64,000 nt of DNA from Halobacteriovoraceae bacterium (GCA_963719505.1 CAVRCF010000003.1:192001-256000); one strand, 5' to 3'; counted from the stretch's first letter, positions 2,248 through 25,994 are shown. The notes: generated by a model from the sequence alone, not told the origin. A program made the numbers and translations.

Positions 2248-3654
2248 ATGAAACAAGATTTTTTTAAACAAGTAGAGTTAAACTTTGATGAGGCTGCAAA
2301 ATATTTAAACAGCTCTAAAGATATCCTAAATCAAATAAAAGCAACTAATACAATTATTACCTTGAAATTTCCAATTAAGCGAGATGACGGATCTGTAGAG
2401 GTCATTCAAGCGTGGAGAGCACAACATAGTTATCACCGAGCTCCATGTAAAGGGGGAATTCGTTATGCCGCCATTGCAAATGAAGATGAAGTGAAAGCGC
2501 TTGCGGCTCTCATGAGTTATAAATGTGCCGTTGTGGATGTTCCATTTGGTGGAGCGAAAGGTGCTGTTAAAATTAATACGAAAGACTATTCTGAAGCAGA
2601 GCTAGAGCGCATAACGAGAAGACTGACTTTTGAACTTTATAATAGAAATTTTATTGGTCCAGGCATTGATGTTCCGGCACCTGATTACGGATCTGGTCCT
2701 AGAGAAATGGCTTGGATAGCAGATACGTTTAGGTCTCTATCAAATGACATCAATGGCTTAGGATGTGTAACTGGAAAGCCTGTATCCCAAGGTGGTATTA
2801 GAGGAAGAAACGAAGCAACTGGTATGGGGGTGGCTTTTGGACTACGCGAATTTTGTGAATCTGAAGAGTACTTAGGTAAATTAGGTTTACCTATTGGAAT
2901 AAGTGGCAAGAAAGTTGCCATTCAGGGATTCGGTAACGTCGGTTATCACAGTGCTTTCTATTTGGAACAGATGGGAGCTAAAATTGTGGCGATTTCTGAG
3001 TACGAGGGAATCATTGAAAATCCAGAAGGATTAAATATTGTTGAATTGCTAGCTCATCGTAAAGAAAATAAGTCTTTTAAAGGTTACAAAGGTGGAACGT
3101 TTTCAACTGATACGAATAAAATCTTCTCTTTCGATTGTGATATTCTTATCCCAGCGGCTTTAGAGTCACAAATCACCACGGAAAATTATAATGATGTAAA
3201 AGCTCAAATTATTGCAGAGGCTGCAAATGGACCTGTAACTTTTGATGCAAGTAAGAAGCTTTTTGAAAAAGGAGTCGTTGTTATTCCAGATATTTATTTA
3301 AATGCTGGTGGGGTAACAGTTTCTTACTTTGAATGGATAAAGAATTTATCACATATTAGGTTTGGAAGAATTGAAAGTCGAAATGATCAGACTAGCTACA
3401 AAAACATCGTCAACATGGTTTCAGAGATGACGGGTAAGAAAGTTGATAAGAGTATCATCGAGAAGTTTTCAACTAAAGGTGATGAAGCTTCATTGGTTGC
3501 TTCTGGACTTGAAGAAACAATGATAACTGCTTTACAGGACCTTCTTTTAATAGCGAAAGAACACAAATACGAAATTGATCTAAGAACTGCTGCGTTCATT
3601 TGTGCTATAAAGAAAATTTCTCTTTGCTATGAAGAAAGTGGAATCTTTCCTTAA
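2248..3654 (+). CDS. gdhA: Glu/Leu/Phe/Val dehydrogenase family, glutamate dehydrogenase
   Basis: PCKGGIRY, VPFGGAKG, DVPAPD, GFGNVG, EAANGP and NAGGVTVSYFEW motifs. Confidence 0.95.
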   Translation: MKQDFFKQVELNFDEAAKYLNSSKDILNQIKATNTIITLKFPIKRDDGSVEVIQAWRAQHSYHRAPCKGGIRYAAIANEDEVKALAALMSYKCAVVDVPFGGAKGAVKINTKDYSEAELERITRRLTFELYNRNFIGPGIDVPAPDYGSGPREMAWIADTFRSLSNDINGLGCVTGKPVSQGGIRGRNEATGMGVAFGLREFCESEEYLGKLGLPIGISGKKVAIQGFGNVGYHSAFYLEQMGAKIVAISEYEGIIENPEGLNIVELLAHRKENKSFKGYKGGTFSTDTNKIFSFDCDILIPAALESQITTENYNDVKAQIIAEAANGPVTFDASKKLFEKGVVVIPDIYLNAGGVTVSYFEWIKNLSHIRFGRIESRNDQTSYKNIVNMVSEMTGKKVDKSIIEKFSTKGDEASLVASGLEETMITALQDLLLIAKEHKYEIDLRTAAFICAIKKISLCYEESGIFP

Positions 3655-3730
3655 AATCAAATGATAATGAATCTCATTCATCAATATGGCTCAGATTTTT
3701 TCATTTTTTTACAAGATGTCTGAGTCAGTA

Positions 3731-3820
3731 ATGACATATAAACTATCAATTTCTAAAGATGAAATAAATCAACTGCCCTCGTTTTGATTTCAATGGAAAT
3801 TCTCACCATCAAACGACTAG
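3731..3820 (+). pseudogene. Possible N-terminal remnant of a 3'-5' exonuclease-family gene
   Basis: MTYKLSISKDEINQLP then a frame-broken RFDFNG; resembles the N-terminus of that family from memory; very short. Confidence 0.3.
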
Positions 3821-3910
3821 ACCCGGTGACGCTCTTCGATTACTTTAATAATTTAGCATCACAAAGTGCGAAATAATTTTCTAGATCCAATTTACTTTGA
3901 ATTTAATTGG

Positions 3911-4030
3911 GCACGAACTCTTGGACCTTCTCAAACCCCAGAAACAAAAAAGCTGGGAAGCTTGTAATTTGAGTAATCTAAATGTCCAAGAAAGGGTTCT
4001 GAAATGGCGAGAGCGGCTCAACTTAAACCT
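3911..4030 (+). repeat. Full junction repeat R3 (hairpin arm, tRNA-Asp 3' end remnant, conserved right arm)
   Basis: gcacgaactcttggaccttctcaaaccccagaaacaaaaaagc...aaagggttctgaaatggcgagagcggctcaacttaaacc. Confidence 0.9.
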
Positions 4031-4229
4031 ACTTAATATTATATACTACTAATTAGATCGGCTATTGCCGCTTTTAACTTTTTAACTATTGTTAGACTAT
4101 TAAAAAACGCTTCTAAACTAAATTATACATATTAAAAGTTAAGTTTGAAGAATATGATAAAATTAATCCTGCGGACGAGTTAAAATTTTTGTATTTATTA
4201 ATAATGTTTAGAAAACGGAGAACTCTAAA

Positions 4230-5693
4230 ATGAGCAATTTCTTTATTTATTTAACAATGTTTCTTTTAAGTATTAGTCTGATTTCATGCTCATCTGGCCC
4301 AACTAGTGGTGGTTACTTTCCTCAGGGGAAACCATTCAATATCGAGGGAACTGTATTTGAATATAGATACACAAAAGATAGCAAGTATGGGCTTACTATC
4401 GAATATTCTAATACTTGGGAACTTGAACCTATTTACTCTTCGATTAAAATCTTAAGTAAAAATGTTATACTCGTTTTAGAAACTGGAGCTAAATTTTATA
4501 AGCATTACAACTATAATACAAAAGAAATGAAAGAGACTGAAATTACCAAGGTTTATGTACCTGCTAATGAAGGCGAAAATGGTGCAGGCAGGGCAGTTTA
4601 TGTTGTTGTCAAAAAAGACTCATCTCACCATTTAGTTACTGATAAGCAAAACTTGAGTTTATTTGAATTAAAAGATCTTGATACCACAGACTCAAATTTA
4701 TTAGTGACGCAAACTCCTTTTGGTGATTTATTTATTCGTAAAAAAATTAATGATAGAAAATTTTACCAAGGAGTTTCAGCCAAAGGCGAGCTGACATCTT
4801 CTACATTCCCGGCGGATAAAGTTCACTTCATGATGAATGAAAGCACAATTAAAAAAGTCACACAATACCTGATACCGCTATTAACAATTGATGAATCGAG
4901 AGAGTTATACTGGCCAATTATCTTCTATTTCAATAATAACAAAGAATATTTAATTGAGAAGCCTGATCACATTCAGGGAGCTTACGTTGATTTTAATTTA
5001 AATGTATACAATCCTAGTTACAAAAAAAATCTATTTAATTTACCAACGAGTAGTGTGTTTTTCATTGTTTACTCTGGGCAGAACGGAAACAGTGCGTTTG
5101 AAAAAAGCTTTGTTATGCAAGACCTAGGTAGTTTTTCAGAAATGAAAAAAGTGCTTACAGACAAACCTAATAATATTAATGGTCTAAATCTGATTAGCAT
5201 ATTACCCGGAAAAGATAGTACTGGTAAAGGAGTTGTTTTTAATAATACTTTTCCTATTCTAAAAAATGAAGAAGGTAAGTATACTATTAAATCGCGTTTT
5301 GGAAGCTATAATGCAAACAATAGAGAATTTGATACACTTGACCAGGTTAGAAATCATTTAAATGAGAGAAGTTTAAATATTAATTCTGTCTCTACGAAAA
5401 TGTATGCTGATAACAAGAAAGAAGAGGCAAATAGAAGAGCAGTTAGTGATGCCACAGATAAAAGGATCAAAGATTGGCAGGATAAATTAAATGCCTCAGA
5501 CCTGGCAATTAAACAGGCTAATGAGCAAGCACAAAAAGATGAGAAAAATCGCGCCTGGAAAAGTGTCGGAGATCAAATTCAAAATGCTGGAGATAAAGCA
5601 AAGGTCAAAGGGGACTGTATCAGAAAAAGAACTCAGACCAAAAAAGATTACTTAGACAAGAAACAGGGATGGTATGAGACAGGTGGTTGTTAG
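4230..5693 (+). CDS. Lipoprotein with conserved C-terminal coiled-coil/Cys tail; paralog of 8815-10302
   Basis: Lipobox-like LISC after a hydrophobic N-terminus; C-terminus VGDQIQ..TQTKKDYLDKKQGWYETGGC is shared with 8815-10302. Confidence 0.85.
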   Translation: MSNFFIYLTMFLLSISLISCSSGPTSGGYFPQGKPFNIEGTVFEYRYTKDSKYGLTIEYSNTWELEPIYSSIKILSKNVILVLETGAKFYKHYNYNTKEMKETEITKVYVPANEGENGAGRAVYVVVKKDSSHHLVTDKQNLSLFELKDLDTTDSNLLVTQTPFGDLFIRKKINDRKFYQGVSAKGELTSSTFPADKVHFMMNESTIKKVTQYLIPLLTIDESRELYWPIIFYFNNNKEYLIEKPDHIQGAYVDFNLNVYNPSYKKNLFNLPTSSVFFIVYSGQNGNSAFEKSFVMQDLGSFSEMKKVLTDKPNNINGLNLISILPGKDSTGKGVVFNNTFPILKNEEGKYTIKSRFGSYNANNREFDTLDQVRNHLNERSLNINSVSTKMYADNKKEEANRRAVSDATDKRIKDWQDKLNASDLAIKQANEQAQKDEKNRAWKSVGDQIQNAGDKAKVKGDCIRKRTQTKKDYLDKKQGWYETGGC

Positions 5694-5750
5694 TTAGATT
5701 CTCCAGACTTTATGATATTTACCTAGTTATCACTTTTTAATTTGGTTAGT

Positions 5751-5869
5751 ATGAACTCTTGAACCTTTTTAAACCCCAGAAACAAAAAAACAAGCTCAAG
5801 GCTTGTAATTTTGGTAATCTGAATGCCTTAAAAGGGTTCGGAGATGGGGGGAGCGGCTTCACTTGAGCC
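5751..5869 (+). repeat. Full junction repeat R4
   Basis: Very similar to 25995-26101 through the tRNA 3' end remnant (tgggg..gagcg), then gcttcacttgagcc. Confidence 0.92.
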
Positions 5870-5971
5870 AATTTTCAAATGTTTAGATGTCTCAACTATG
5901 TCAATTCCTTGCAGTTAATCTTACAAGACCAAATAAGTTCTAGTGTGTAAATTAGTGAATTTTATTTACTG

Positions 5972-5992
5972 CTGTATCGAATAGTGATACAG
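5972..5992. promoter_or_regulatory. Candidate HigA operator palindrome
   Basis: ctgtatc-N7-gatacag inverted repeat just upstream of higB. Confidence 0.5.
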
Positions 5993-6014
5993 TGATAAGG
6001 CAGATGGAGTTATT

Positions 6015-6305
6015 TTGATTATTAATTTTCAAGGAAAGATAGCCAAAGACATATGGGTGACGAATACCTCCAAGTCTTTACCAAGAGAATTATGGATACG
6101 TGCCAAAGCCTTACTGACAATTATACATGCAACAAGAGACTTGGATGATTTAAAAATTAAAGGACAACCACCCAATATTCGTCTTCATAAACTAAAAGGC
6201 GATCGAAAAGAATATTGGAGCATAACAATAAAATTACCTTGGTGTATTACGTTCAAGTTTAAAAATGGTGAATTTACCGAGGTTAAGATAGAAAACTATC
6301 ATTAA
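6015..6305 (+). CDS. higB: HigB-like toxin (RelE/ParE superfamily)
   Basis: RLHKLKGDRKEYWSI..W.I.FKF......V.I.NYH pattern; toxin-first gene order. Confidence 0.88.
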   Translation: MIINFQGKIAKDIWVTNTSKSLPRELWIRAKALLTIIHATRDLDDLKIKGQPPNIRLHKLKGDRKEYWSITIKLPWCITFKFKNGEFTEVKIENYH

Positions 6306-6309
6306 GAAA

Positions 6310-6585
6310 GTGAGGTCTATTATGATTACTAATCCTATGCCAATGCACCCAGGTGAAGTTTTATCTTCTATTTATATGAGTGAAATGGGTCTTACTCAGG
6401 TTGGACTTGCTAAGCTCTGCAAATGTACGAGTGCAAAAGTAAACGAGATTGTTAATAAGAAACGCGGTATCACAGCAGCTTTTGCAATAACACTAGAGAC
6501 TGTCCTTGGTACAAGTGCAGAGATGTGGGTGAGAATGCAAGCAGAGTATGACCTTTGGGAAGCTAGGCAGAAGTTGGCTTCTTGA
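6310..6585 (+). CDS. higA: HigA antitoxin (XRE HTH)
   Basis: HPGEVL...LTQ..LA...EIVN.KRGIT...W..MQ.EYDL. Confidence 0.92.
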   Translation: MRSIMITNPMPMHPGEVLSSIYMSEMGLTQVGLAKLCKCTSAKVNEIVNKKRGITAAFAITLETVLGTSAEMWVRMQAEYDLWEARQKLAS

Positions 6586-6849
6586 TGGATGGTACTTTTA
6601 TGTCTTAGAATTGGGTATTTAAGAGCCAAATTATATGGCCCTTATTGATTGACTTGATTATTTGTTTAGATCAACTCGATATATACACGAATGGTTACCA
6701 TTAGAATTTAGTAATTTTTCAACCATTTCAAACTGATAAGTTTCATTAATTTTTTTAATAGATACAATATGCCTTGCAATTAAATTAGGTGTTTGAGTTC
6801 CTAGTTCATTTGATGCAAAAGAAGTGCTTCCAGTTATTTTTGCATAATT

Positions 6850-8088
6850 TGGAAGTAACACGAATTGCGTTTACAACACCTGACTAAATATTGCCGGTAA
6901 TATTTGAGTCATGCGTTCTCAGTTAAAATTGTAGTAACCACAAAACAATTTTTAACAAAAGGAAAACACATGACTCAACAACAGTATCTCATTAATCGTA
7001 AGCTCAACATAGTTGAATTTGCAGACACTTTAAAAAATATTACAAAAGCATGCAAAAGACTTGGTGTAAGCCGACAGCATTACTACGATATTAAAACTGC
7101 CATACAAGAAGACGGACTTGAAGGCCTTATAGAAAAGTCTAGAAGAGGTCCAAGAGTTGGAAACAGGTGCGCTCCAGAAGTCGAGAAAGCTGTTCTAGAC
7201 TATTCTTTACAGTATCCTACCCATGGACAAGTTCGAGTTTCGAATGAGCTTAAAAGAAAAAGCAATATTGCTATTAGCGCTGGCGGAATTCGCTCAATCT
7301 GGCTCAGGCATGACTTACAAGTAAAACATCTAAGGTTAAAACGTCTAGAGAAATGGTCGGCTCAGGAGAATAATATTTTAACTGAGTCTCAAGTCCAAGC
7401 ACTCGAAGAGAGAAAGCAAGAGAAAGAAGCTCATGGCGAAGTAGAGACTCATCACTCTGGATTTCTATTCGCCCAAGATACTTACTACGTTGGCTACATT
7501 AAAGGTGTTGGAAAAATTTATCAGCAAACAGGAATTGATACCTATTCTAATGTGGGGTTTGCAAAACTCTATCTGGATAAAAGTCAAACTGTTGCGGCAG
7601 ATTTTTTAAACAGCAAAGTACTTCCATTCTTCGACGAACACAGGATCTCAGTTCTTAGGATTTTGACAGACAATGGACGAGAATATTGTGGTCACAAAGA
7701 TGCGCATCACTATCAATTATTCATGCACTTGAATGATATAGAACATAGTCGAACAAAAGTAAGACATCCTCAAACGAATGGATCAGTAGAGAAATTAAAT
7801 CAAATCATCCAAAATGAATTTTATAGTGTTGCATTTAGAAAGAAGCTTTATACGAGCCTAGAAGGACTGCAGGATGATCTTGATTTTTACATGAAGGATT
7901 ACAACTTCGACAGAACAAATCAAGGAAAGAGGTGCAAAGGAAGAACTCCTTATGAAACATTTTCAGAAGGAGTAAAATTGTATAAAGAAATGGTTTTTGA
8001 CACCGAGGTAGAAAGTAGCGAAATAGATTTACAATAGTTTTATATTTTGACTGAGAGCGTTTTGTAAACGCAAGTCGTGACTACTGCA
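6850..8088 (+). mobile_element. IS481-family insertion sequence with 7-bp target duplication
   Basis: Imperfect 27-bp terminal IRs (..cacgaattgcgtttacaa / ttgtaaacgcaagtcgtg..); cataatt at 6843-6849 and 8089-8095. Confidence 0.9.
6970..8037 (+). CDS. IS481-family DDE transposase
   Basis: N-terminal HTH; QDTYYVG, LTDNGREYCG and PQTNGSVE rve motifs. Confidence 0.93.
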   Translation: MTQQQYLINRKLNIVEFADTLKNITKACKRLGVSRQHYYDIKTAIQEDGLEGLIEKSRRGPRVGNRCAPEVEKAVLDYSLQYPTHGQVRVSNELKRKSNIAISAGGIRSIWLRHDLQVKHLRLKRLEKWSAQENNILTESQVQALEERKQEKEAHGEVETHHSGFLFAQDTYYVGYIKGVGKIYQQTGIDTYSNVGFAKLYLDKSQTVAADFLNSKVLPFFDEHRISVLRILTDNGREYCGHKDAHHYQLFMHLNDIEHSRTKVRHPQTNGSVEKLNQIIQNEFYSVAFRKKLYTSLEGLQDDLDFYMKDYNFDRTNQGKRCKGRTPYETFSEGVKLYKEMVFDTEVESSEIDLQ

Positions 8089-8309
8089 CATAATTAACAA
8101 TATCCTTAGGATTAAAAACACCAAGTTCATTTCTGTAGCCCATTATAGGATGTGGGCAGAAGTATCTAGCAGAAGGTTGCAAACGGAGGGTTGAGAACTT
8201 CACTATAGATTGATTTGCTAAACTTCTACGGTGGTCACTTGGTACAGGTATGGTCTGCTAGCAAACTAATTTTTTTATTTGGTTTTTAAAGTATGCACGA
8301 GTAGAGATT

Positions 8310-8336
8310 TTTCTTTTGAACCTCTTTCTAGTCTCT
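8310..8336 (+). repeat. Short fragment R5 of the junction repeat
   Basis: ttgaacctctttc is identical to 10559-10571; tttctagtctc is shared with R1. Confidence 0.45.
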
Positions 8337-8352
8337 ATTCTAACCAAAAAGC

Positions 8353-8815
8353 TTACTTTCCTAGTATTGTTTTAAGTTTATTCCCAAATTCTCTTCCTGC
8401 TTTCAAATCACTTATGCCTTCATTAATGGACATTAATTGAATCAATGAATTATCAATCTTGTGATAGGGGAATTTAGTATTTTGAGGTTGTACAAAGGAG
8501 AAGCGCACAGGCTTTGCTAGACCTCCAATATTAAGCACTGCACCTCCCATAAAGAAGTACCATGGAAATTTAGCTTTAATATTTTGCTTTGACCCCCAAT
8601 TCAGTATTGATTAATTGGACCGGTTCTTCTTTTTTCAGAAAGTCGATACTACTCTCTGTATTACTGTAGGCTTCTAAATCTAAAAGCTTTTTCTCACTAA
8701 ATGTTCCTCGCCCAACAAGAGAAAAAGAAAACATACTGTTATCAATTTCAATATACCCTGGTGCGCTGTGAAATATCCCATCTAATAACCACGTTTTATG
8801 AACTATATTTCTCAT
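8353..8815 (-). pseudogene. Small partner protein, frameshifted near 8590; paralog of 4-405
   Basis: Two ORFs (8576-8815, 8353-8550) join via QNIKAKFPWYFFMGG in an alternate frame near a G5 run; start overlaps the lipoprotein stop. Confidence 0.75.
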
Positions 8816-10302
8816 TATTTACAGCCACCAGTTTCGTACCAACCTTGTTTTTTCGCTAAGTAATCTTTTTTGGTTTGAGTTTGTTTATTTATGCACTTTG
8901 CTTTTTTATTTGCAGCGGCACCTGCTTTTTGAATTTGATCTCCAACTCGGCTCCACACAGCATTTTTTTCATCTTCTCTTGCTTTTTCTTCAGCAATCTT
9001 CTGTGCTTCACGGTTTTTATATTTTTTCTCTTCGGCGTTTAGAATATCAATCCTTCTTTTTTCTCGCTCAGTTACGGCAGTACGCTCTTTTGTAATTTTG
9101 CTGAAATAAGAATTTTTATTTTGAGTTGCTATCGATTTATAGTTTTGAATCCGATAATTTATGGCTGCACGAGCCTCAGGCCTACTATCAAATGCTATAG
9201 CTAATTCTCCATCAAGAGATTGATTAGGTCTAGCAGCATAGACATGTTTTTCATTATCGTTTTTATAAATAACATATGCTCTATTGAATGTTGCACCGCC
9301 AGTAGTAATATCTATGCCATTTATTACTTCATAATCTGTCGCAGTATTAGTATTTGTAAACGTATTTTTTATAGCGTTGAGTATTCCACTATTAGTATCT
9401 AAGCTACCAGGGTTTATACTTACAAATTCTTTTCCGTCTTTTAAGGCTAAAATATCAAAGTTAGAGAAATAAGGGATCTTGTAAAAATCATTTTGTTTTG
9501 TCTCTGGATAAGCCCAGTGTTGTAATGAATTGTCGATAAATCCAAGAACACCTTCTGGTCTTTTAGCGATATCTCCTCTTTGATTAAAAAGTATCGGCCA
9601 ATACAGATTTCTCTCTTTATTAACAATTCTAAAAGGGATAATGAATGTTCTTTTATGGTCACCGTTATAGTAAGTACGTAAAACAACTTCATTTGCAGGG
9701 ATAGGCTCTAGATCTAGGAGTTTTCCTTCTATATCGTATCTTTTGTAGTATTTTTTATCACCCTCTTTATGTCTTACTAGAAATCCATAATAAAATCCTG
9801 GAAGGACTGCATCGAATAGCTCTCTATCGTCAAAAAAATTTCTAATCGGTTCGTCTAGATTACTGAACTTATTAGGGTAAAGCCTACCTGTTTTCGAGTT
9901 AATAGGATAAACGTCCCCATTTGATTTCTGTGCAAGACCTAGCCAATTTAAATGGCTATCTCTTTTTCCCCCTCTCTTTGGGTACCAAATTTTTTTAATA
10001 TCAGTATCAGCGTGAGAATTAGTCTTAATGTTGAAAACTTCGAAAGTATCAGAATTATTTTTTCTTAGATAAATGACTTCGTCGCTAAACGATCTAATAT
10101 TCGCGTATTTGGGCGGTATAACCCAACTCTTAGAACCTCGTTTAACCATTCCCATATAAATTCCAGAGGTCGTATCTTTCTCCCAGCAATAGCTATATTT
10201 TTGTCCGCCTAAAGTCGCAACTCCATTACAAGTATAACTTTCACGAAAACTTGCACAGGAATTAAATATTAAGATAATAAGAGCAATTAAAAATAGTTTC
10301 AT
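8815..10302 (-). CDS. Lipoprotein; paralog of 4230-5693
   Basis: Lipobox-like FNSC; LYWPI.F and the C-terminal KKQGWYETGGC are shared. Confidence 0.85.
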   Translation of the reverse strand: MKLFLIALIILIFNSCASFRESYTCNGVATLGGQKYSYCWEKDTTSGIYMGMVKRGSKSWVIPPKYANIRSFSDEVIYLRKNNSDTFEVFNIKTNSHADTDIKKIWYPKRGGKRDSHLNWLGLAQKSNGDVYPINSKTGRLYPNKFSNLDEPIRNFFDDRELFDAVLPGFYYGFLVRHKEGDKKYYKRYDIEGKLLDLEPIPANEVVLRTYYNGDHKRTFIIPFRIVNKERNLYWPILFNQRGDIAKRPEGVLGFIDNSLQHWAYPETKQNDFYKIPYFSNFDILALKDGKEFVSINPGSLDTNSGILNAIKNTFTNTNTATDYEVINGIDITTGGATFNRAYVIYKNDNEKHVYAARPNQSLDGELAIAFDSRPEARAAINYRIQNYKSIATQNKNSYFSKITKERTAVTEREKRRIDILNAEEKKYKNREAQKIAEEKAREDEKNAVWSRVGDQIQKAGAAANKKAKCINKQTQTKKDYLAKKQGWYETGGCK

Positions 10303-10530
10303 ACATATGCCTTTGAATAGAACTAATTCTTTAATGATAGTTAAAAAAAACCAATAAGTTTAGCAGGTAAAATCGGCGTTATATTGGGTCGAATTATGTA
10401 CCTAATTATGTGACTAACTTACTGACTGGGTTCTGGGGGAATCGCCCACTGTTAAACGAGAATATCTGGCCCTATGGCTTCGTACGTTACAGGGAAAAGC
10501 CATCTTAGTAGATGACAGTTTTTTCGGAAT

Positions 10531-10571
10531 AGGTCGAAAATGGCGGGAGCGGCTCCACTTGAACCTCTTTC
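10531..10571 (+). repeat. Right half R6 of the junction repeat, containing the exact tRNA-Asp 3' end
   Basis: tcgaaaatggcgggagcg is identical to 26084-26101, followed by gctccacttgaacc. Confidence 0.88.
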
Positions 10572-10711
10572 CAATAACTTAAAGTCTATGAGCATAGTAA
10601 TTGCCTTCGCCTACCATACTACAAAATTGATCAGCTCTGTTGGTAGTAAAAACTACCTTTATATAGAAAAATATAGTTTTTTGTGCTATTATGAATTCAA
10701 TGGAGGTACTT

Positions 10712-10936
10712 ATGGGTGCTAAGCAGCTTGCAACAAAAATTGATGAGAGTATTAAAGATGCTTTAGATCTATTCTGTGAAGATAGAGGTCTGAAGATTAA
10801 TAGGTTTCTAGAGGATGCAATTCTGGACAAAATTGAAGAGTATGAAGATATATCTGATATTCGAAAATTAAGAAAAGAAAAATCTCGCGACTTTCAAGAT
10901 GTTCTAAAAGAGTTGAAAACTAGTGGCAAATTATAA
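10712..10936 (+). CDS. Antitoxin (RHH/CopG-like) of a RelBE-type pair
   Basis: GGAGG RBS; small protein with an acidic central segment, overlapping the downstream RelE. Confidence 0.75.
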   Translation: MGAKQLATKIDESIKDALDLFCEDRGLKINRFLEDAILDKIEEYEDISDIRKLRKEKSRDFQDVLKELKTSGKL

Positions 10937-11186
10937 AATCGAAATTACTTCTACAGCAGAGAAGTCGTTAAAAAAAATACCTAAAAAAGATATTGGTAAA
11001 GTTGTTGAAGCAATCCAGATTTTGGCAATATCACCTTTCCCTAGTGGTTGCCGAAAACTTAAAGGTGAAGAAGACGTCTATCGTGTTCGCCAAGGAAATT
11101 ACCGAATAATTTATGATATTCTTGATACTAAGTTAATTGTCTTAGTTTTGAAAATTGGACACCGTAAAGACATCTATAAAAAGTAG
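10923..11186 (+). CDS. relE: RelE/ParE-family toxin
   Basis: RKLKG..YRVRQGNYRIIYDI....VLKIGHRKDIY. Confidence 0.92.
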   Translation: MANYKIEITSTAEKSLKKIPKKDIGKVVEAIQILAISPFPSGCRKLKGEEDVYRVRQGNYRIIYDILDTKLIVLVLKIGHRKDIYKK

Positions 11187-11450
11187 CTCTATTTCGAGCA
11201 TACAATTACTTACAAAACAACCACGAATAATAAACTTAAGAAAGCGTTCGATGAATGTGGCATTAGATATAAGACTTGGCATTGTTGCAGACATACTAGA
11301 GGTACATTTCTGTATGGAAAAACAGGGGATAAAGCTCTATCAATGAGCTGGTTAGGGCACTCGAGTGAGCGAGTTCACGACAAATATCTACATACTTATG
11401 AGGCCTTGATGAGAGAGATTAAATCGAAGGATTGTGATTGGGGAGATTAA
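11187..11450 (+). pseudogene. C-terminal remnant of a tyrosine recombinase/integrase (not in ORF track)
   Basis: My translation: KTWHCCRHTRGT (HxxR)...SWLGHSS (LGH)...DKYLH (catalytic Tyr); the N-terminal part is missing. Confidence 0.8.
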
Positions 11451-11493
11451 ATAAAATTAGTAAACTTTGATGCTCAAAATCCGATAATATTGT

Positions 11494-12048
11494 ATGGCAT
11501 TTCAAGATGATGAGCGTGAAAAAGAGATGATTGAATCATTTGGACTAGATTCTGTCGAAGGACGAACTAGTACTGACGCAATTTAAAAAATTAGTGGAAA
11601 GGAATTGGAATTCGAATTGAAGTCTACTCAGTCTGGCTCAGTAACAACTGTAAGAGATTTTGGGCAGGAGCATATTCGAAAATGAAAGACAAAACACTGG
11701 TTAATTGGTGTATACACAAATAATATCCTTGATTATTGTTGGTATGGCTCTCCAAAAGATATCGCCAAATGGATAAAAAGCAAGGAAGAGTATATTCAAG
11801 CAGACTTTGATTTAGCAAGTTTGGTTCCCGATCTAGTTGGAACTGAAGTATTAAATAAGATCTTAGGTGATAAAGATTTTTATTCTTTGGAAGACGCTAG
11901 AAAATTGCATAAGAAACAATATACCAAGAATAAGTACTTAGAGTTAATGGATACGGAAACAGGTTATAGTAAATCTAAAATGCTTAGAATTCTTCAGGAC
12001 AGATGTAGGTATATAATTGAAAGAGGCTCTCTACTAATATTTTTATAA
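11494..12048 (+). pseudogene. Degraded PD-(D/E)xK nuclease, restriction-endonuclease-like
   Basis: MAFQDDEREKEM...TDAI*...FELKSTQSGSVTTVRDFG...; internal stops and frameshifts. Confidence 0.55.
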
Positions 12049-12800
12049 AAAATGAAAATTACTCGAACTTACTTGCACTCGTTAAAGAGGAGGACCCTGA
12101 TTTACTCCTCTTGCTAGAACCTGATGAGAAATGGAAGCAAGGTGTGCGAGCTTTAGAGGACCAATTTAAATTCTACAAACTACTGCCAAGGAATAATGCC
12201 TACGGGATGTTTCTTTATTCAAAATTTAAGTTAGAGGATCTAGAAGTCCGTTATTTGATAGATGAAAATGTTCCTTCTCTATATACGAAATTTTCTATTG
12301 ATAATTCGAGCCCAGTTCACCTTTTTTGCCTTCATCCAAGGCCACCAAGACCAGGTGAGTCTTCTAGTCTTCAAAGAGATGCTGAGTTAATTAAAGTTGC
12401 AAAGGAAGTTAAAGAGATCAATACAGAGCCTGCTTTTGTGATTGGTGATTTAAATGATGTCGCTTGGTCACATACAACTCGTCTTTTCAAAAGGCTAAGC
12501 GAAACACTAGACCCCCGAGTTGGAAGAGGATTCCTTAATACATTTCCTGCCAGCAGTAAGATCTTCTCTTTTCCTCTCGATCACGTTTTCCACACAAAAA
12601 AACTTGGCTTGAAAGAAATGAAGGTGCTAAGAAATATAGGTTCCGATCATCGTCCTATATCTATTTCTTTTGAAATCTTAGAGCGTGGCGAGGAGAGCTC
12701 TTCTCCTGAGTGTGCTGATTCAGAAGATAAAGAGGAAGCAAAGTCTACCGAGCAAGAGTCAAAAAAGTGGGATGGGCCAGTAAAAGAGGTTGATAGTTAG
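12049..12800 (+). pseudogene. Endonuclease/exonuclease/phosphatase-family protein, 5' truncated
   Basis: DPDLLLLLE, GDLNDVAWS, LDHVF and GSDH motifs; reading frame begins abruptly after the preceding remnant. Confidence 0.75.
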
Positions 12801-12874
12801 TAGTATAAAAAACGCTTTTCAGAGGCTTTTTTTGCAAGTGTAGACTGTGAATCTTCAAAATCAAAAGGTTAAAG

Positions 12875-13267
12875 CTAAGTTATTTTAGACAAAAATTCAT
12901 TCACCTTTGAGATCAGCAGTTTCTTATCCACAGGCTTTTTTATGTAATCATCAAACTTAAAAGGGTTATTCGTTTCTGGCCAGGAGTCTTCTTCGTAAGC
13001 ACTCATTGCAAGTATCTTATGATTTGGGTTTTCAGATTTTAGGTGATTTAGTGCCTCAATACCATTCATTTCAGGCATTTCAATATCAAATATGAATAAA
13101 TCAAAATTAAACTCACTTGCCATCTTTACTGCTTCTAGGCCATTTTCGGCGAATTTTATCTGTGCATTAGTATTGCGTAGATAAAAATCATAAATTCTAA
13201 AGTTTTCAATACAGTCGTCTGCAATTAAGATTTTATATTTACTGAGGTCTAAATTTGCTTCATTCAA
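12875..13267 (-). CDS. Single-domain response regulator (REC)
   Basis: ILIADD, FDIEMPEMNG, YIKKP. Confidence 0.92.
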   Translation of the reverse strand: MNEANLDLSKYKILIADDCIENFRIYDFYLRNTNAQIKFAENGLEAVKMASEFNFDLFIFDIEMPEMNGIEALNHLKSENPNHKILAMSAYEEDSWPETNNPFKFDDYIKKPVDKKLLISKVNEFLSKIT

Positions 13268-14399
13268 TGGTTATATCTCCAATGATGTGTTGCTTGTATT
13301 TTTTCGTGAAAGGAAACTTAATCATAAAACTTGCACCTTTACCTAAAGTAGATTGTGCATCAACAGATGCTTTCATTAATTTAGCTAAACCGAATGATAT
13401 ATGTAGACCAAGTCCACTTCCACCAAACTCTTTCGTTATCTCTGTGCTTTCTTGGCTAAACTCACCGAATATATTTTTTTTAAAGGTTGGATCAAAACCT
13501 TGTCCTGTATCATGAATTGTAAAGGTGGCAATATCATTTATATCTGTAGAGACTTCAAAAGAAATTGTTCCAGTCTTTGTGAACTTTAAAGCATTACTTA
13601 AAAAGTTATTTAGTATTTGTTTCAAACGAAAGGCATCAGCTGATATAAATGATTTTTCACAAATGTTTTCACAGATATGAAATTCCCAGTTTAATTTTTT
13701 TGCCTTTACTAAAACAGCAGAATCTAATGCAAATCCTTGTGCAAATCCATAGATACTTACTTCTTGATTATTTACTTGGAGCTTATTCATCTCAAGTTTT
13801 GAAAAATCAAGGATCTCATCTACAAGTCTTTTAATATCGTGAGTTTGACGATAAAAAATTTCGGCGGTTTCTTCCGCAGGTATAGCATCAGGGTCCTCCC
13901 GCAAAATATTACTGTATCCTATCATCGTGTTTAATGGGTTCCTAACTTCATGAGCTATAAAGTTCATCAAGTAAGTTTTAGCCTTTACGAGCTTAGAGAT
14001 CTTAAGATTTCTTTCATTTAGATATGAATTTAACTCATTAACATAGTCTGTTCTTTGACGTAGTGTTTGTCTCTTTTGAAATTTCTCGAGGCCTGACTGT
14101 GGTAAACAAAATCCTATAAATTTAAATATTAAATTATCATCATCCTCAGTTACTTTAAAAAAATTAAAATTTGACTCTAAGCTTTCACTATTAATAGCTA
14201 CCTTTATCTTGTCGCTCTTAATGACTATAATTAGGCTGCTTTTTTCAAAAAGGGATAAAACTATTTTCTGTAATTCACGACATATCTTTAAACACTTCTC
14301 AGTAGATTTTTCTGTATAGGTCAGTAACTCAAAGAAGATCTCTTCAAATAAAAAAACATCAGAATTTTGATAAATAGGAAATTTCAAGTTTCTATTCAT
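13260..14399 (-). CDS. Sensor histidine kinase
   Basis: AHEVRNPL H-box; NALKFT, DTGQG and GGSGLGL boxes. Confidence 0.92.
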   Translation of the reverse strand: MNRNLKFPIYQNSDVFLFEEIFFELLTYTEKSTEKCLKICRELQKIVLSLFEKSSLIIVIKSDKIKVAINSESLESNFNFFKVTEDDDNLIFKFIGFCLPQSGLEKFQKRQTLRQRTDYVNELNSYLNERNLKISKLVKAKTYLMNFIAHEVRNPLNTMIGYSNILREDPDAIPAEETAEIFYRQTHDIKRLVDEILDFSKLEMNKLQVNNQEVSIYGFAQGFALDSAVLVKAKKLNWEFHICENICEKSFISADAFRLKQILNNFLSNALKFTKTGTISFEVSTDINDIATFTIHDTGQGFDPTFKKNIFGEFSQESTEITKEFGGSGLGLHISFGLAKLMKASVDAQSTLGKGASFMIKFPFTKKYKQHIIGDITIE

Positions 14400-14799
14400 A
14401 CTGAAGCACTTTTTTGAAGTTAATGACAGTTCCTTTTGTGTCAGATTTTATTTTAAACTGATCAGCTATTCTTTTGCAGGAAGCGAGACCAAGCCCTAAA
14501 GTATCACCTGTTGAAAAATTCTCTTTTAATGCTCTATTTATGTTTTCTATACCTGGCCCTTTGTCTTTTGATATAATGATTGCCTCACAGCTATCCACAT
14601 AAAAAGTTAGTGAAATTGTTAATTCGCCATCGTGGGCGTACTTAACTAGGTTTGTTCCAAGTTCAGATACTGCTGTTACGTATCGACATAGATCAACACT
14701 ATTAATATCTTTTCTTATGCCAAAGTTCATTATGGAGCCTAGTACAGAGATAACATCTGATTCGGCAGTGATTGGAAACGTTTTTTCTACTTTTTCCAT
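14392..14799 (-). CDS. rsbT: RsbT-like Ser/Thr kinase (anti-sigma regulatory factor)
   Basis: TAVSELGTNLVKYA, DKGPGI..I..AL...FSTG.TLGLGL. Confidence 0.85.
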   Translation of the reverse strand: MEKVEKTFPITAESDVISVLGSIMNFGIRKDINSVDLCRYVTAVSELGTNLVKYAHDGELTISLTFYVDSCEAIIISKDKGPGIENINRALKENFSTGDTLGLGLASCKRIADQFKIKSDTKGTVINFKKVLQYE

Positions 14800-15107
14800 A
14801 ATATCTCATAATCACTATGGCTATCTCTTGATGAGATAGACGTTGAGAGCATAGGTGACATGTTTATTTTTTTAGTTTTATGATCCAAGATATTTAAGAC
14901 ATTTATAAATCGCACAAGATCTGTTAATTCTTGATCAGAGATATGGTTCAAACCATCAAAATCTAATATCACTTCACTCGTTGTTGAAGCTTTACACAAG
15001 TCATTTAACTTTTCATAAGTTTCTGGGAAACACATTTGTTCCAATGATTCATGATAAATATTCACTTTAATAGTGTGACCTTGTCTGCTAAAAAAATTTA
15101 TTGGCAT
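14787..15107 (-). CDS. Divergent STAS-domain protein in the RsbS position
   Basis: VILDFDGLNHIS STAS-like motif; lies between the rsbR-like and rsbT-like genes. Confidence 0.55.
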   Translation of the reverse strand: MPINFFSRQGHTIKVNIYHESLEQMCFPETYEKLNDLCKASTTSEVILDFDGLNHISDQELTDLVRFINVLNILDHKTKKINMSPMLSTSISSRDSHSDYEILWKK

Positions 15108-15108
15108 A

Positions 15109-15528
15109 TCAGATATTTTCCTGATCCCTTGTTAACTTATAACCCAATTTTAACATACAGTATTGGAGGGCATTACCAATTGTAGTCTTAGTGGTCATTT
15201 GATCAAAATTAATATTGAGGGTTGTCATTGAGTGAGCAACGGTGGCATTTATTCCAGATAAAACGCAATCGCAACCCATTAATGTAGCGGCTTTATTAAG
15301 GTTTAAGATATGCTTTGAGACGGAACTATCAATAGCAGGTACATTAGAAATATCTACGATTAAAAAAGGTGCATCCTTATCTTGGATTGAGTGTAAGGTT
15401 TTTGATAAAATAGCCTCAGCTTTAGTTGAGTCAAGAAAGCCAGATATTGATAAAAATAAAATTCCATCCCACAGTTGATTAACGGTAATTAGTTCTTTGT
15501 AATCCGCATTATTTGCAAAATCAGTCAT
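15109..15528 (-). CDS. STAS-domain protein, RsbR-like (STAS only)
   Basis: LWDGIL...G.LDS..A, IVDISNVPAIDS, LMGC..VLSGI..VA. Confidence 0.85.
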   Translation of the reverse strand: MTDFANNADYKELITVNQLWDGILFLSISGFLDSTKAEAILSKTLHSIQDKDAPFLIVDISNVPAIDSSVSKHILNLNKAATLMGCDCVLSGINATVAHSMTTLNINFDQMTTKTTIGNALQYCMLKLGYKLTRDQENI

Positions 15529-15689
15529 ACATCATCCTTATTTAAAAATATTTATTAGTATAAACACAACGTATAGTAAGCTCAATAAGGCTAAACGTAA
15601 AAGTAATAATGTATAACTTGTCGTTCATACATAGCTGCAGTGAGTCGTTCTAAAGATTTAAAGTAAAAAGAGATTTTTGAGTATATCCG

Positions 15690-15961
15690 AAAAAAGTTTG
15701 GTTTTTAAAAGGAAATGAACTCTTATGAACATAAGATAACGGACAAGTTTGTAAAAAATGGTAGTGAATAAGTGTCTTGGTGACAAGATAACTAGATGAA
15801 AAAGTAGCAATGCGGATTTTTTATAGAGCTTTTGAAGTTATCCGCGCAGGCACTGAAATTGAGCAGAGTTTTGGGTGCAGGAATCCATCCCTGTTTTTGG
15901 CCCTCAGGGTGACAGGCCGATTTTTTTGTAGAAAAAGAGGAAAGTTAGTCGTGGATTTGGG
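15690..15961 (+). mobile_element. Orphan, diverged right-end non-coding region of an IS1380-like element
   Basis: ttggtgacaagataactagatgaaaaagta matches ttggcgacaaaataagtagatgaaaaagta (~23731-23760); ends in gtggatttggg like gcggatttggg at 25835 and 25948. Confidence 0.7.
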
Positions 15962-16108
15962 TGTTACAAGTCTTGCTTCAAAGATAAAAGTTTCTCGTAA
16001 AACCATTTATCATTAGAAAAAGAAATATCCTGATTAAGAGATGCTAAAAGATGACATAGCTAGTAAATTTTGTGAGAATTTTTATATTAAATTAAAATGG
16101 AGTTTAAT

Positions 16109-16180
16109 ATGAAATTTGTAGCACTATTATTACTTTTATTATCAACTTCAATTTTTGCTAAAGATAAGTTTGATTTAAAC
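16109..16180 (+). pseudogene. N-terminus of a secreted protein truncated by an IS
   Basis: GGAG RBS then the signal peptide MKFVALLLLLLSTSIFAKDKFDLN, cut at the IS end. Confidence 0.6.
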
Positions 16181-16283
16181 TGTTCGTGACCCTGGACTGC
16201 GGTCGTAATATCGGAGTCCAACATACTTATTTAAAGCCCTGAAAATAGGTCAATTCTTAAATCTGATATAATCAATTTAGGAG

Positions 16284-16685
16284 TTGAAAATGACAAAAAG
16301 AAACAGAAAAACATTTACCAAAGAGCAAAAAGACTGGGCCGTCGACGAATTCATTGCCGGAAGCCTCAGTGTCGATCAAATTGCAGAGCAACTCGGAGCT
16401 GAACCTCAATACATTTATCGATGGAAAGTTCTCAGAGAAGAAAAACTTAAAGGTCTCAGAGTTGAGGAGCTAACAGCTCGCGGAAATTCTATCGAGGAAT
16501 CACAAAGGATTTTTGAATTTGAGCTCGAAGTTGATGCCTATAAAAAGAAATTTGCCGAACAAGTTCTCATAAGTGACCTTTTAAAAAAACTCCTGAAGTA
16601 TCCACCCTTACAACGAGAGAGCGAATTGACTGGGTTACTAAAAACTATAAAAGCACAGGAACTAAAAAGAAGGCAATCCAAATAA
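16284..16685 (+). CDS. IS3 OrfA (HTH)
   Basis: RKTFTKEQK...IYRWK; A7 slippery site at ~16583. Confidence 0.88.
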   Translation: MKMTKRNRKTFTKEQKDWAVDEFIAGSLSVDQIAEQLGAEPQYIYRWKVLREEKLKGLRVEELTARGNSIEESQRIFEFELEVDAYKKKFAEQVLISDLLKKLLKYPPLQRESELTGLLKTIKAQELKRRQSK

Positions 16686-17506
16686 TGGAGCTATCATCAT
16701 CTACTTATTATAAAGATTCAAAAGTTACCAGAGCAGAAAAAGAAGAACATGATGCTGATATTCGAGGTAAAGTTGAACAGCTAAGAGTAGCGTTTTCAAG
16801 AGCCGGTTACAGGCCATTACTACAGCACTTAAAAAGACATGGTATCTCTGTTGGAGAAACTCGTTTAAGACGAATTCTAGGTGAATCAGGGCTCTTTTTA
16901 AAGCCAAAAAGAAAGTATATGAGAACAACGACGTCAGATCATGATGAACTTGTTCATCCAAATTTGATTCAAGGGATGACTATTGATGGAGTTAATCAAG
17001 TTTGGGCCGGAGATATAACTTATATTCGAATTAACAATGGATTTGTTTTCCTGGCAGTCCTTCTTGATCTTTATTCACGTAAAGTCATTGGTTGGTCAGT
17101 CTCAAAAAGAATAGATGGGCAGTTAACTCTAGATGCTTTGAAGATGGCCATCAAACGAAGAAATCCACCAGAGGGAGTTATTCACCACACAGATCGAGGA
17201 GTTCAGTATCTCTGTGAAAAATATGTAAAAGAATTGAAGGAAAATAATTTTCACCTATCTTGTTCTCGAAAAGGGAATCCTTATGACAACGCTTGGTCAG
17301 AATCTTTTATGAAAACTTTAAAGCACGAAAAAGTTTTTATGAGGAAGTACGATACATTTTTAGACGTGATTGATAAGCTGCCATATTTTATTGAAGAAGT
17401 TTATAATAAGAAAAGATTGCATTCATCTTTGAATTACTTGCCACCGGAAGAATTTGAAGATATTTACACTGAAGAAAAAAAGGATCGACCTGTTTTTATA
17501 CTTTAG
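16685..17506 (+). CDS. IS3 OrfB transposase catalytic domain
   Basis: WAGDITY, HHTDRGVQY, NAWSESF. Confidence 0.93.
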   Translation: MELSSSTYYKDSKVTRAEKEEHDADIRGKVEQLRVAFSRAGYRPLLQHLKRHGISVGETRLRRILGESGLFLKPKRKYMRTTTSDHDELVHPNLIQGMTIDGVNQVWAGDITYIRINNGFVFLAVLLDLYSRKVIGWSVSKRIDGQLTLDALKMAIKRRNPPEGVIHHTDRGVQYLCEKYVKELKENNFHLSCSRKGNPYDNAWSESFMKTLKHEKVFMRKYDTFLDVIDKLPYFIEEVYNKKRLHSSLNYLPPEEFEDIYTEEKKDRPVFIL

Positions 17507-17575
17507 CGTGTTGGTGTCCGATCAAACGACCGCAGTCCACCCCCCTTTTGATGGCTACCTCTTAACGGAGGAAAA

Positions 17576-17941
17576 ATGGGAAGAAATAGAAGAAGATTTA
17601 GTGAAGATCAAAAAGTTCAAATCCTACAGGAACATCGTTCAAAAGGTGCTCCAATTTCAGTTTTAGCACGAGTCCATGATATAAATGCAGTAACTTTATA
17701 CCAATGGAAAAGAGCTATGAAAGACAAACCTGATACTAATATTGATGTTGCTGACCTTTTGAAACAAATTGATCAACTAAAAAAAGACAAAGATAAACTA
17801 CTAAAGAAAGTTGGCGAGTTTACCCTCAGAGAAGAGGTCGCTCAGGATATCATCGACTTTTATAAAAAAAAGATCTTGGAACAGGAGTTGAGCGAGCAAA
17901 AGAATTCATCAAACTCAAAAAGAAAGGATCAAAAAAAATGA
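17576..17941 (+). CDS. IS3/IS2-like OrfA
   Basis: RRRFSEDQK...LYQWKR; A8G frameshift motif at ~17864. Confidence 0.88.
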   Translation: MGRNRRRFSEDQKVQILQEHRSKGAPISVLARVHDINAVTLYQWKRAMKDKPDTNIDVADLLKQIDQLKKDKDKLLKKVGEFTLREEVAQDIIDFYKKKILEQELSEQKNSSNSKRKDQKK

Positions 17942-18741
17942 TCTGCGAAATGTTTGGAGTTCACTCAAAATCAATTTATAAAACTACTAGCTCAAAGAAA
18001 TTTTACTTTAAAGCTGAAGATGAAGATATTCTCAGCCAGATTCGATCTATCGTTTCTTTGCGCCCAACTTATGGTTATAAAAGAGTTACGGCCATGGTCA
18101 ATCGTATGCGACTTACCCTAGGCCATCCAAGGCTTAATAAGAAGCGTATTTACAGGATAATGAGAATGAATGGCCTTCTTCTTCCAAAGTCTGCTGTGAC
18201 GAGAACTCACACTTCAACTGGAAAAGTAATGACTCTGCATTCGAATATGAGGTGGTGCAGTGATTGTTTTGAGATTAAGTGCTTTAACGGAGAAAAATTT
18301 TTTGTATCTTTTGTTTTAGATACATGTGACAGAGAAGTTCTCTCATTTGTAGCCTCAAAATCACCACTGCTTGCGACTGATATTGAAAGTTTAATGCTAA
18401 AAGCTGTACGCTATAGGTTTAAAGATTATAAGACTTCTAGAACGATAGAATTTTTATCGGATAGAGGAAGTATTTACCGAGCCCATTCAGTTAAGAATTT
18501 AGCGAATCATCTTGGTTTAAAAAGCTGTTACACAGCAGCCTATAGTCCAGAATCAAATGGAATGAGTGAAGCTTTTGTGAAAACGATCAAGCGAGATTAC
18601 GTCTACAACAGCGATTGTTACAGCTCAGATATATTGCTTAAAATGATTAAGGGATGGGTGAACGATTATAATGAAATAGCACCACATTCAGGGCTTGGCA
18701 TGTTGAGTCCAAAAGAGTATTTATTAGAAAATCAAAGGTAG
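17938..18741 (+). CDS. IS3/IS2-like OrfB transposase
   Basis: RWCSDCFE, LSDRGS, SPESNGMSEAFVKTIKRDY. Confidence 0.93.
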   Translation: MICEMFGVHSKSIYKTTSSKKFYFKAEDEDILSQIRSIVSLRPTYGYKRVTAMVNRMRLTLGHPRLNKKRIYRIMRMNGLLLPKSAVTRTHTSTGKVMTLHSNMRWCSDCFEIKCFNGEKFFVSFVLDTCDREVLSFVASKSPLLATDIESLMLKAVRYRFKDYKTSRTIEFLSDRGSIYRAHSVKNLANHLGLKSCYTAAYSPESNGMSEAFVKTIKRDYVYNSDCYSSDILLKMIKGWVNDYNEIAPHSGLGMLSPKEYLLENQR

Positions 18742-18764
18742 CCTGAAACGGGGTCCAATCCAAA

Positions 18765-18947
18765 TATGATGTCTTGGATCTAATTAAAAACAATAAGTTG
18801 AAGTTAGTGCTAGCAGACTTAACACCTGAGTCTATGCCCATTTCATTCATCTACTCACATAAAAAACACCTTTCTCAAAAAGTGACAGCTTTTATGGATT
18901 GGTTTGATGAAATTTTCCAAAGCAATATAACGATTAATAAAGGATAA
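18765..18947 (+). pseudogene. C-terminal remnant of a LysR-type regulator (not in ORF track)
   Basis: My translation: YDVLDLIKNNKLKLVLADLTPESMPISFIYSHKKHLSQKVTAFMDWF, like the end of a CrgA-type LysR substrate domain. Confidence 0.7.
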
Positions 18948-18951
18948 ATTT

Positions 18952-20013: not shown

Positions 20014-20036
20014 TAACTAATAAATTATATTGGTGA

Positions 20037-20733: not shown

Positions 20734-20758
20734 TTTGCTTTCCAGTTAATTTTCTGTC

Positions 20759-20850
20759 GCACGAACTCTTGAACCTTTTCAAACCCCAGAAACAAAAAAA
20801 CGAAGCAAAAGCTTCGTAATCTCGGTAATCTAAATGCCCAAAAAGGGTTC
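20759..20850 (+). repeat. Junction repeat R7, left arm, ending at aaaagggttc
   Basis: Near-identical to 25995-26085; inner hairpin shows covarying acgaagc/gcttcgt. Confidence 0.92.
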
Positions 20851-20874
20851 AATCTATAATCAGGTTAGAGATTA

Positions 20875-21955: not shown

Positions 21956-22098
21956 AACGTAACCGCGCACGATGATACCTAATATCGTGCGTTCCAAGTA
22001 GTCGTAATAAGGCTTTTCATCATTTTGATAAATTCACCCAAAAATTGAAAAAAAAGTGTTTTTTTTACGGCCCTGCATAAAGAAAAAGCTTTTTTGTT

Positions 22099-25948: not shown

Positions 25949-25994
25949 ATTTGGGTTTTGTTTTTAGATGTTTTTTTCATTGATATTTTCCGCT

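Follow-up and report, generated by a model that had tools for sequence, protein, structure and literature searches.

How did several copies of the same tRNA end, each continued by an arm that does not belong to the tRNA gene, come to lie on the 3′ side of tRNA-Asp in a Halobacteriovoraceae bacterium? The copies are found in a 64,000-nt stretch of its genome (GCA_963719505.1, CAVRCF010000003.1:192001-256000), which is referred to here as the window and on which all coordinates are counted unless another locus is named. We consider that the region from ~1.9 to 26.1 kb is probably a tandem array of small, decayed integrative elements, which have kept their attachment (att) sites and lost their own integrase. 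Each junction in the array is described below by its parts, P (the left arm, ~70-95 nt), core (the tRNA end) and P′ (the right arm), and other genomes and loci are designated by our own G and L numbers.

Junctions at the 3′ end of tRNA-Asp

The features on which this interpretation depends are as follows, with the strand given where one applies.

26091-26167, minus strand: tRNA-Asp(GTC), the proposed integration target (ARAGORN; Rfam tRNA, 70.6 bits).
25995-26090: type-1 P arm directly downstream of tRNA-Asp, with a terminator-like hairpin at 26052-26035 on the minus strand.
20757-20850: R7, a lone type-1 P arm that stops right after GGGTTC and has no core and no P′; terminator at 20817-20800.
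10470-10640: junction R6, with a type-2 P, an exact core at 10541-10551 and a full P′ from 10552 to ~10640.
10516-10499, minus strand: terminator of the R6 P arm.
5750-5869: junction R4, with a type-1 P, a core with one mismatch at 5845-5855 and P′ at 5856-5869.
5806-5790, minus strand: terminator of the R4 P arm.
3911-4029: junction R3, with a type-1 P at 3911-4004, a core with one mismatch at 4005-4015 and a degenerate P′ at 4016-4029.
1871-2006: degenerate junction, in which CCTAAATTTGTATCCCGAGTTATATGT, a right arm of another kind, comes after a diverged P arm (terminator 1954-1936).

The tRNA-Asp gene is intact, has the array on its 3′ side, and is the single tRNA-Asp of the 3.69-Mb, five-contig assembly, which has 32 tRNA genes and one tmRNA gene; it was also the sole match in an Rfam search over positions 1-30000. 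The plus-strand reading of its 3′ end is TGGCGGGAGCG, after which comes the T arm aagggactcgaacc, and the repeated core corresponds to its last 11 nt (26091-26101). This 11-mer is exact in R6 and has its single mismatch in each of R3 and R4, and direct repeats of the tRNA 3′ end, at 4005, 5845, 10541, and 26091, mark the limits of the elements. The 11-mer alone is a weak signal, with seven matches at up to two mismatches against 2.9 expected. The 25-mer that joins core and arm, by comparison, has three matches at up to three mismatches and none in 100 shuffles, and the 29-nt left part of the unit is present in four copies against zero expected. Across the 3.69-Mb genome there are four strong matches to the repeat unit, every one of them at the tRNA-Asp locus.

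At 4005, 5845, and 10541 the place of the T arm after the core is taken by the P′ arm, GCTCCACTTGAACC, which reads gctccacttgaacc in R6, gctcaacttaaacc in R3, and gcttcacttgagcc in R4. That these three copies match the tRNA-Asp end and then all change at the same base had been noticed in a first-pass annotation of the window, and the 25-mer counts bear this out. A block of ~95 nt on the core's left side is common to R3, R4, and the tRNA copy, and R7 has it without the core; the window's repeats are mutually 79-91% alike.

The P arms fall into at least three unrelated types: type 1 is the 95-nt block of the window, type 2 is the left flank of R6, which is common to G016 and G164, and type 3 was found in G051. 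Five of the six P arms in the window have a terminator-like hairpin and a T run on the tRNA strand. In type 1 the hairpin stem is either ACAAGC/GCTTGT or ACGAAGC/GCTTCGT, the pairing being kept despite the sequence change, and conservation is higher still in the far 40 nt of the arm (GAACTCTTGAACCTTTTTAAACCCCAGAAAC...), which are nearly invariant over 14 copies. The type-1 arm was considered as a native trailer of the tRNA gene, which seems the less likely reading, the arm being absent from the same-genus genome G001 and present at internal junctions in several genera. An arm related to it follows tRNA-Ser(gct) in two genera, and the type-1 arm probably travels with the elements; its occurrence at the outermost junction beside conserved neighbors (DUF3050, MscL) in G062 and G078 would also fit a native origin.

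The P′ arm starts with GCTCCACTTGAACCTCTT and, in many copies, runs on for ~100 nt with two more conserved blocks. R6 retains the distal block (CGCCTACCATACTACAAAATTG), and R3 and R4 retain only the first 14 nt, in degenerate form. Several P′ arms hold a stretch like the consensus for integration host factor (ATCAATTATTTA). In relatives the distal block reads (T)CACCCACCATCCTACAAGATTG (window 10608-10629), and CACCCACCA within it resembles an opposite-strand tRNA 3′ end. The different right arm of the degenerate junction at 1871-2006 has a counterpart after a P1-TGGCGGG junction in G078. The glutamate dehydrogenase (GDH) gene (2248-3654) may therefore be cargo, and the array may reach further left than the coordinates first reported for it.

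R3 and R4 both have the motif resembling GAACC(C)TTTT that the first-pass annotation counted up to three times per unit: one copy stands at the left, one at the right, and one, inverted, in the middle. The middle copy, AAAGGGTTCGAAAA, is missing from three of the 14 type-1 arms and from the other arm types. R7 does end at this middle motif, as had been stated, but R6 does not begin near it, since R6 is a complete junction with a type-2 left arm. Judged by their sequence, the GAACC-TTTT motifs are candidate recombinase-binding sites. Three further stretches are candidates for integrase binding: GGGTTCGAAAATGGC, the 18 nt of P′ used in the scans below (the P′ 18-mer), and the far 40 nt of the type-1 P arm.

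Of 18 P′ arms, 10 have GAACC at +10 to +14 from GGGAGCG, as do nine of 12 tRNA-side arms, where this position is the T loop. Type-1 P arms have GGTTC at the mirror position, giving GGTTC-N9-GGGAGCG-N9-GAACC, a 35-nt dyad centered on 7 nt of the acceptor strand, which is exact in six of the 18 P′ junctions and three of the 12 tRNA junctions. The dyad may have a role. The wider dyad described earlier for R6 does not hold as written, its left half reading GGTC and not GGTTC. R6 does contain the palindrome GGAGC-G-GCTCC, which is perfect in 12 of the 18 P′ junctions, has one mismatch in the other six, and is lacking at the tRNA junctions (3-5 mismatches), with its center 3 nt off that of the outer GGTTC/GAACC dyad. 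We rejected this inner palindrome as evidence of a hairpin: the core GGGAGTG of G112 is followed by ACTCC, which keeps the palindrome, and the same core in G007 is followed by GCTCC, which breaks it. RNAalifold applied to 11 P′ arms gave -5.4 kcal/mol with no compensatory pairs and no conserved structure.

Lambda-type attP sites consist of a short core, identical to attB, between long flanking arms that carry repeated short motifs. The junctions described here resemble this layout, with protein binding to the motifs putative. The earlier proposal that the internal junctions are attP-like is supported by comparison with relatives, in that they have the arm-core-arm layout that tandem integration produces.

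An invariant switch point in related genomes

Breakpoints in related genomes are not random. We tabulated 18 P′ junctions, from the window and nine other loci, and in every one P′ comes straight after the tRNA-Asp 11-mer, with the switch falling at one and the same base. The 34-nt sequence made up of core and P′ was found in 12 of 150 other Bacteriovoracaceae genomes, with up to three copies per contig, and tRNA-Asp adjoins these copies in six of the eight stretches that were fetched. With the P′ 18-mer (at most one mismatch), a scan of 151 genomes gave 17 matches, in 14 of them; the reversed pattern had none. Ten of the 17 stand after the Asp 11-mer, three stand in the same register after TGGCGGAGAC(G/A), a tRNA-Ser-type end, and four have unrelated flanks. 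We also scanned public metagenome and viral contigs for the exact P′ 18-mer and read 125 loci (five viral contigs and 120 metagenome loci), among which there were three Asp-type junctions and one Ser-type junction that we accept as real; no integrase was found within 2 kb of these four. The other 121 matches, including all five viral contigs, had unrelated flanks and were set aside as chance matches.

The crossover may be placed within the last 11 nt of the tRNA, where the first-pass annotation had also put it, because a set of odd junctions brackets it and because the shared block shrinks to ~11-14 nt in genomes with unrelated P arms. As far as sequence can tell, its simplest position would be GGGAGCG. 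The odd junctions bracket the GGG of this heptamer: the outer junction of G003 has only GGGAGCG in common with the core, and in the P arms of G007 and G078 identity ends at GGCGGG.

On the 5′ flank of tRNA-Asp, an ArsP and/or SDR gene is kept in eight of 10 relatives (ArsP in six), and on the 3′ side none of the 10 has anything in common with the window. The same-genus genome G001 has one core, another trailer, no type-1 arm, and no array within 20 kb. An attempt to locate an empty site through the left-hand genes was abandoned, as none of the 10 relatives has GDH or TrkH near its tRNA-Asp.

Repeats of other kinds were also seen at this tRNA gene. At position 5881 of L067 (G112) and on contig C4 of G012, direct repeats of the tRNA-Asp end reach ~20 nt into the T arm, and from this extension we conclude that tRNA-Asp is used by a further element family, or more than one, whose crossover differs. 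L030 (G019) has, on its reverse strand at ~940-1580, two 273-nt repeats upstream of tRNA-Asp, which start with ~21 nt of the tRNA 3′ end and end in a T-loop-like TTCGAATCC; this kind of array differs from that of the window.

Candidate integrase and alternative explanations

On the reading that we favor, the elements would have entered the 3′ end of tRNA-Asp successively by site-specific recombination, each of them bringing an attP composed of a P arm of ~70-95 nt, the last 11 nt of the tRNA, and a P′ with the start given above. After integration the P arm would sit behind the tRNA and, because it carries a terminator on the tRNA strand, would provide the rebuilt gene with one, and each insertion would leave an internal P-core-P′ junction resembling attP. 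Strand exchange would most likely take place across the 7 nt GGGAGCG, on the 3′ strand of the acceptor stem. The GAACC of P′ is as far from GGGAGCG as is the tRNA's own T loop, so one enzyme could read both partners. That enzyme would probably be a tyrosine integrase of ~430-450 aa, from the family to which the following remnant belongs.

11187-11450, plus strand: tyrosine integrase C-terminal remnant, 87 codons, with the HxxR, LGH, and Y motifs kept (HCCRH, LGH, KYLH).

The remnant aligns with the last 80 residues, the catalytic C-terminus, of a family of tyrosine recombinases of 430-450 aa, which matches phrog_1 over its full length and scores above the cut-off of no named NCBIfam model. Two loci of G098 have full-length members of this family 0.8-1.2 kb from the same P′ arm, with a toxin-antitoxin pair between them and a core of the tRNA-Ser type. 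Remnants also lie ~1 kb from P′ in G112 and in L123, that of L123 being 87% identical to the window's at the DNA level. Accretion would have been followed by decay, in which most elements lost their integration genes, and the relic units could move only through an integrase supplied in trans or through homologous recombination between the repeated junctions. The copy in the window appears to be such a relic.

One of the G098 loci, L089, contains at 5055-17044 an intact element of ~12 kb beside tRNA-Ser(gct), which carries the ~450-aa integrase, a family-B DNA polymerase of 1003 aa, another, shorter tyrosine recombinase (244 aa), and a toxin-antitoxin pair of the Gp49/HTH kind, and which may be a self-replicating integrative element.

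Several observations weigh against this reading, most of them concerning the link to the integrase. Phage_integrase matched none of the 29 open reading frames (ORFs) of the window, in which the family is represented by a single 17-bit remnant, and no intact integrase was found beside an Asp-type P′ junction. The intact genes of G098 are joined to the tRNA-Ser-type core rather than to that of tRNA-Asp, and they point toward the core, whereas the remnants point away from it. A profile of the family, which matched its positive controls (G098, G060, and G000), found nothing at E up to 1e-3 in G078 and in G062, which is a single contig, nor at E up to 1e-10 in G016, G081, and G149, and all five genomes carry arrays. 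In the window's own genome the sole full-length relative is ~28-30% identical and lies beside tRNA-Arg. As for the sites themselves, only six of the 18 P′ junctions have an exact left GGTTC in the outer dyad, and two copies in G081 form a perfect direct repeat of 82 nt, which homologous recombination could yield as well. We looked for P′ upstream of the full-length integrases of G060, G007, and G002 and for the far end of the G060 island, and found neither.

The best of the alternatives is a cassette-capture platform, in which the units never had an integrase and an unlinked recombinase, from the host or a helper element, inserts and excises them at tRNA-Asp; functionally it would be integron-like, with a tRNA attB and a long, arm-bearing attP. 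It would be suggested by the 14 junction-to-junction intervals measured in the window and its relatives, which span 0.83-15.6 kb (median 2.9 kb) and contain no full-length integrase, and by L123, where two full junctions enclose a complete unit of 829 nt that consists of a toxin-antitoxin pair. The candidate integrase family is, as noted, missing from five near-complete genomes that bear arrays, and the module of P′ and toxin-antitoxin genes has different neighbors in four genomes. Nevertheless, we regard this explanation as unlikely. Remnants stand at the same relative place by P′ in the window, G112, and L123, and intact integrases stand by P′ in G098; both facts point to autonomous elements that have decayed. 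The genes within the units are of mixed orientation, the arrays have no conserved flanking recombinase gene, and IntI is absent, the matches to the integron-integrase model (TIGR02249) being far below its cut-off (17-24 bits against 265). It is doubtful that tRNA-Asp is a standing gene-capture site in Bacteriovoracaceae, at which minimal integrase-less circles (a ~200-nt attP and one to four genes) would be shuffled by a recombinase in trans, for example one from a rare polymerase-B-bearing helper like that of G098.

We think it very unlikely that site-specific recombination had no part in the arrays, and that a block of tRNA end, trailer, and terminator instead spread through duplication, or when circles sharing it entered by Campbell-type homologous recombination, with P′ as common flanking DNA. 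This would account for the perfect repeat in G081 and for another of ~50 nt (P arm and core) in G149, as well as for arrays in genomes without a cognate integrase. It does not agree with the limited likeness of the window's repeats to one another, with the joining of the same P′ in the same register to a different tRNA end, or with the uniform switch point of the 18 junctions at 10 loci. Homologous recombination between junctions may also move units, but it cannot explain the arrays alone, because the switch base is invariant beside unrelated P arms.

That P′ and core are a decayed tRNA gene or other small RNA gene is scarcely credible: in the tRNA sense the arm (AGGTTCAAGTGGAGC plus CGCTCCCGCCA) does contain a T-loop-like GGTTCAAGT, but ARAGORN and Rfam are negative at the arm, the RNAalifold result given above offers it no structure, and the arm matches none of the genome's 33 tRNA and tmRNA genes, the best of their 3′ ends having mismatches at four of 15 arm positions, all of them would-be T-stem positions.

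Known systems and the cargo of the units

The reading that we favor, a tandem array of decayed integrative elements, places the locus among systems of a known kind, the gene-acquisition hot spots at tRNA genes, with a family that is newly seen. According to the part of the published account on which we draw, several ssrA islands of Dehalococcoides form a tandem series downstream of a single small RNA gene, each with direct repeats of the gene's 3′ end at its bounds, and beside the repeat there is a conserved, element-derived motif which does not align with the RNA gene and from which the authors infer the insertion point (PMC3146451). Fifteen of the islands have no integration module and are discussed in that part as possible cis-mobilizable elements (PMC3146451), the kind to which the att-flanked, integrase-less units of our array correspond. 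Judged from the same part, these islands are the closest described case. They differ in their tmRNA target, 20-bp repeat, T-loop insertion point, and the serine-type, CcrB-like DsiB present in 16 islands (PMC3146451), whereas the array described here has tRNA-Asp as its target, an 11-nt core in the acceptor strand, much smaller units, and a candidate tyrosine integrase that is almost always missing.

Prochlorococcus tycheposons, in the portion of the preprint used here, are cargo elements at tRNA genes, whose neighbors are separated only by partial tRNA, and their islands contain fragmented integrases and extra partial tRNAs (bioRxiv 10.1101/2020.12.28.424599). As far as that portion describes them they are found as integrase-carrying elements, on average 1-2 per genome, in contrast to the long conserved junction arms and almost wholly integrase-less units in our loci.

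The array is like those of integrons in that small recombinase-less units, toxin-antitoxin ones included, are stacked at one site. Unlike integrons, it has no intI and no attI, the only tyrosine recombinase in the window is the remnant, and its junctions, at ~200 nt and directly repeated, lack the conserved hairpin of attC and are accompanied by genes of mixed orientation. Streptococcal arrays of ICEs (integrative and conjugative elements) and IMEs (mobilizable integrative elements) likewise include att-flanked segments without a recombinase of their own, in tandem with related elements. Those arrays usually have a functional ICE alongside, whereas here no intact partner is present in the genome.

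Specific to the present case are the 11-nt acceptor-strand core of tRNA-Asp with its tRNA-Ser-type sister form, the length and conservation of the arms, the very small units, and the presence of these units in genomes without a cognate integrase. The sections of the Halobacteriovorax and Bacteriovorax literature on tRNA and genomic islands that we drew upon contain no description of this family or locus. The 3′ side of tRNA-Asp is a shared hot spot of gene gain in a predatory bacterial family, with a cargo that includes toxin-antitoxin pairs, a restriction-modification gene, regulators, lipoproteins, and metabolic enzymes, and the junction signature (the 11-nt tRNA end plus GCTCCACTTGAACCTCTT) allows such arrays to be found in genomes and metagenomes. 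If the units still move, they would be a simple natural system of trans-mobilized cassettes, and if they do not, the locus would be an ordinary graveyard of islands; were the unlikely capture-site explanation true, a tRNA attB and a lambda-like attP would be the basis of a cassette economy resembling that of integrons.

The segments between the junctions of the window contain the following.

4030-5749, plus strand: cassette with a single gene, for a 487-aa putative lipoprotein (4230-5693).
5870-10469: cassette with HigB/HigA-like genes (6015-6585), an IS481-like transposase (6904-8037), and a 495-aa lipoprotein paralog (8815-10302, minus strand).
10641-20756: composite cassette with a toxin-antitoxin pair, the integrase remnant, an EEP nuclease, and a response regulator with a histidine kinase.
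10691-11186, plus strand: antitoxin-like gene and ParE toxin, directly beside the P′ arm of R6.
20851-25994: innermost segment, which has part of a gene for an FAD-binding enzyme, a pair of identical DDE transposase genes, and a tandem repeat of 113 nt.

The composite cassette also has RsbW/STAS-like genes, two IS3-type insertion sequences, a bestrophin gene, and a methyltransferase fragment. The R3-R4 and R4-R6 intervals are bounded by full junctions and contain no recombinase except the insertion sequence transposase. The module of P′ and toxin-antitoxin genes beside R6 recurs in G149 and in the metagenome-assembled locus L123 at 79-82% nucleotide identity. Cargo in the relatives is varied and comprises toxin-antitoxin pairs, a type IIG-like methylase, regulators, and enzymes; the 95 ORFs in the loci of eight relatives gave one Phage_integrase match (in G164, by a non-canonical core) and one fragment of a serine recombinase.

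Some smaller features of the cargo were also recorded. L123 has three complete P1-core-P′ junctions within 3.4 kb (3706-7132), and its 829-nt unit holds only the antitoxin-like gene and ParE. The two lipoproteins of the window (4230-5693, plus strand, and 8815-10302, minus strand) are 29% identical over ~480 residues, with their last ~60 residues nearly identical (...KKDYLxKKQGWYETGGC), and neither has a Pfam family. In the innermost segment, a tandem duplication of 1861 nt (region 21940-25947) holds the two identical transposase genes, of 478 aa each, and the 113-nt tandem repeat, which is perfect, lies at 25722-25947, beside the tRNA-side arm.

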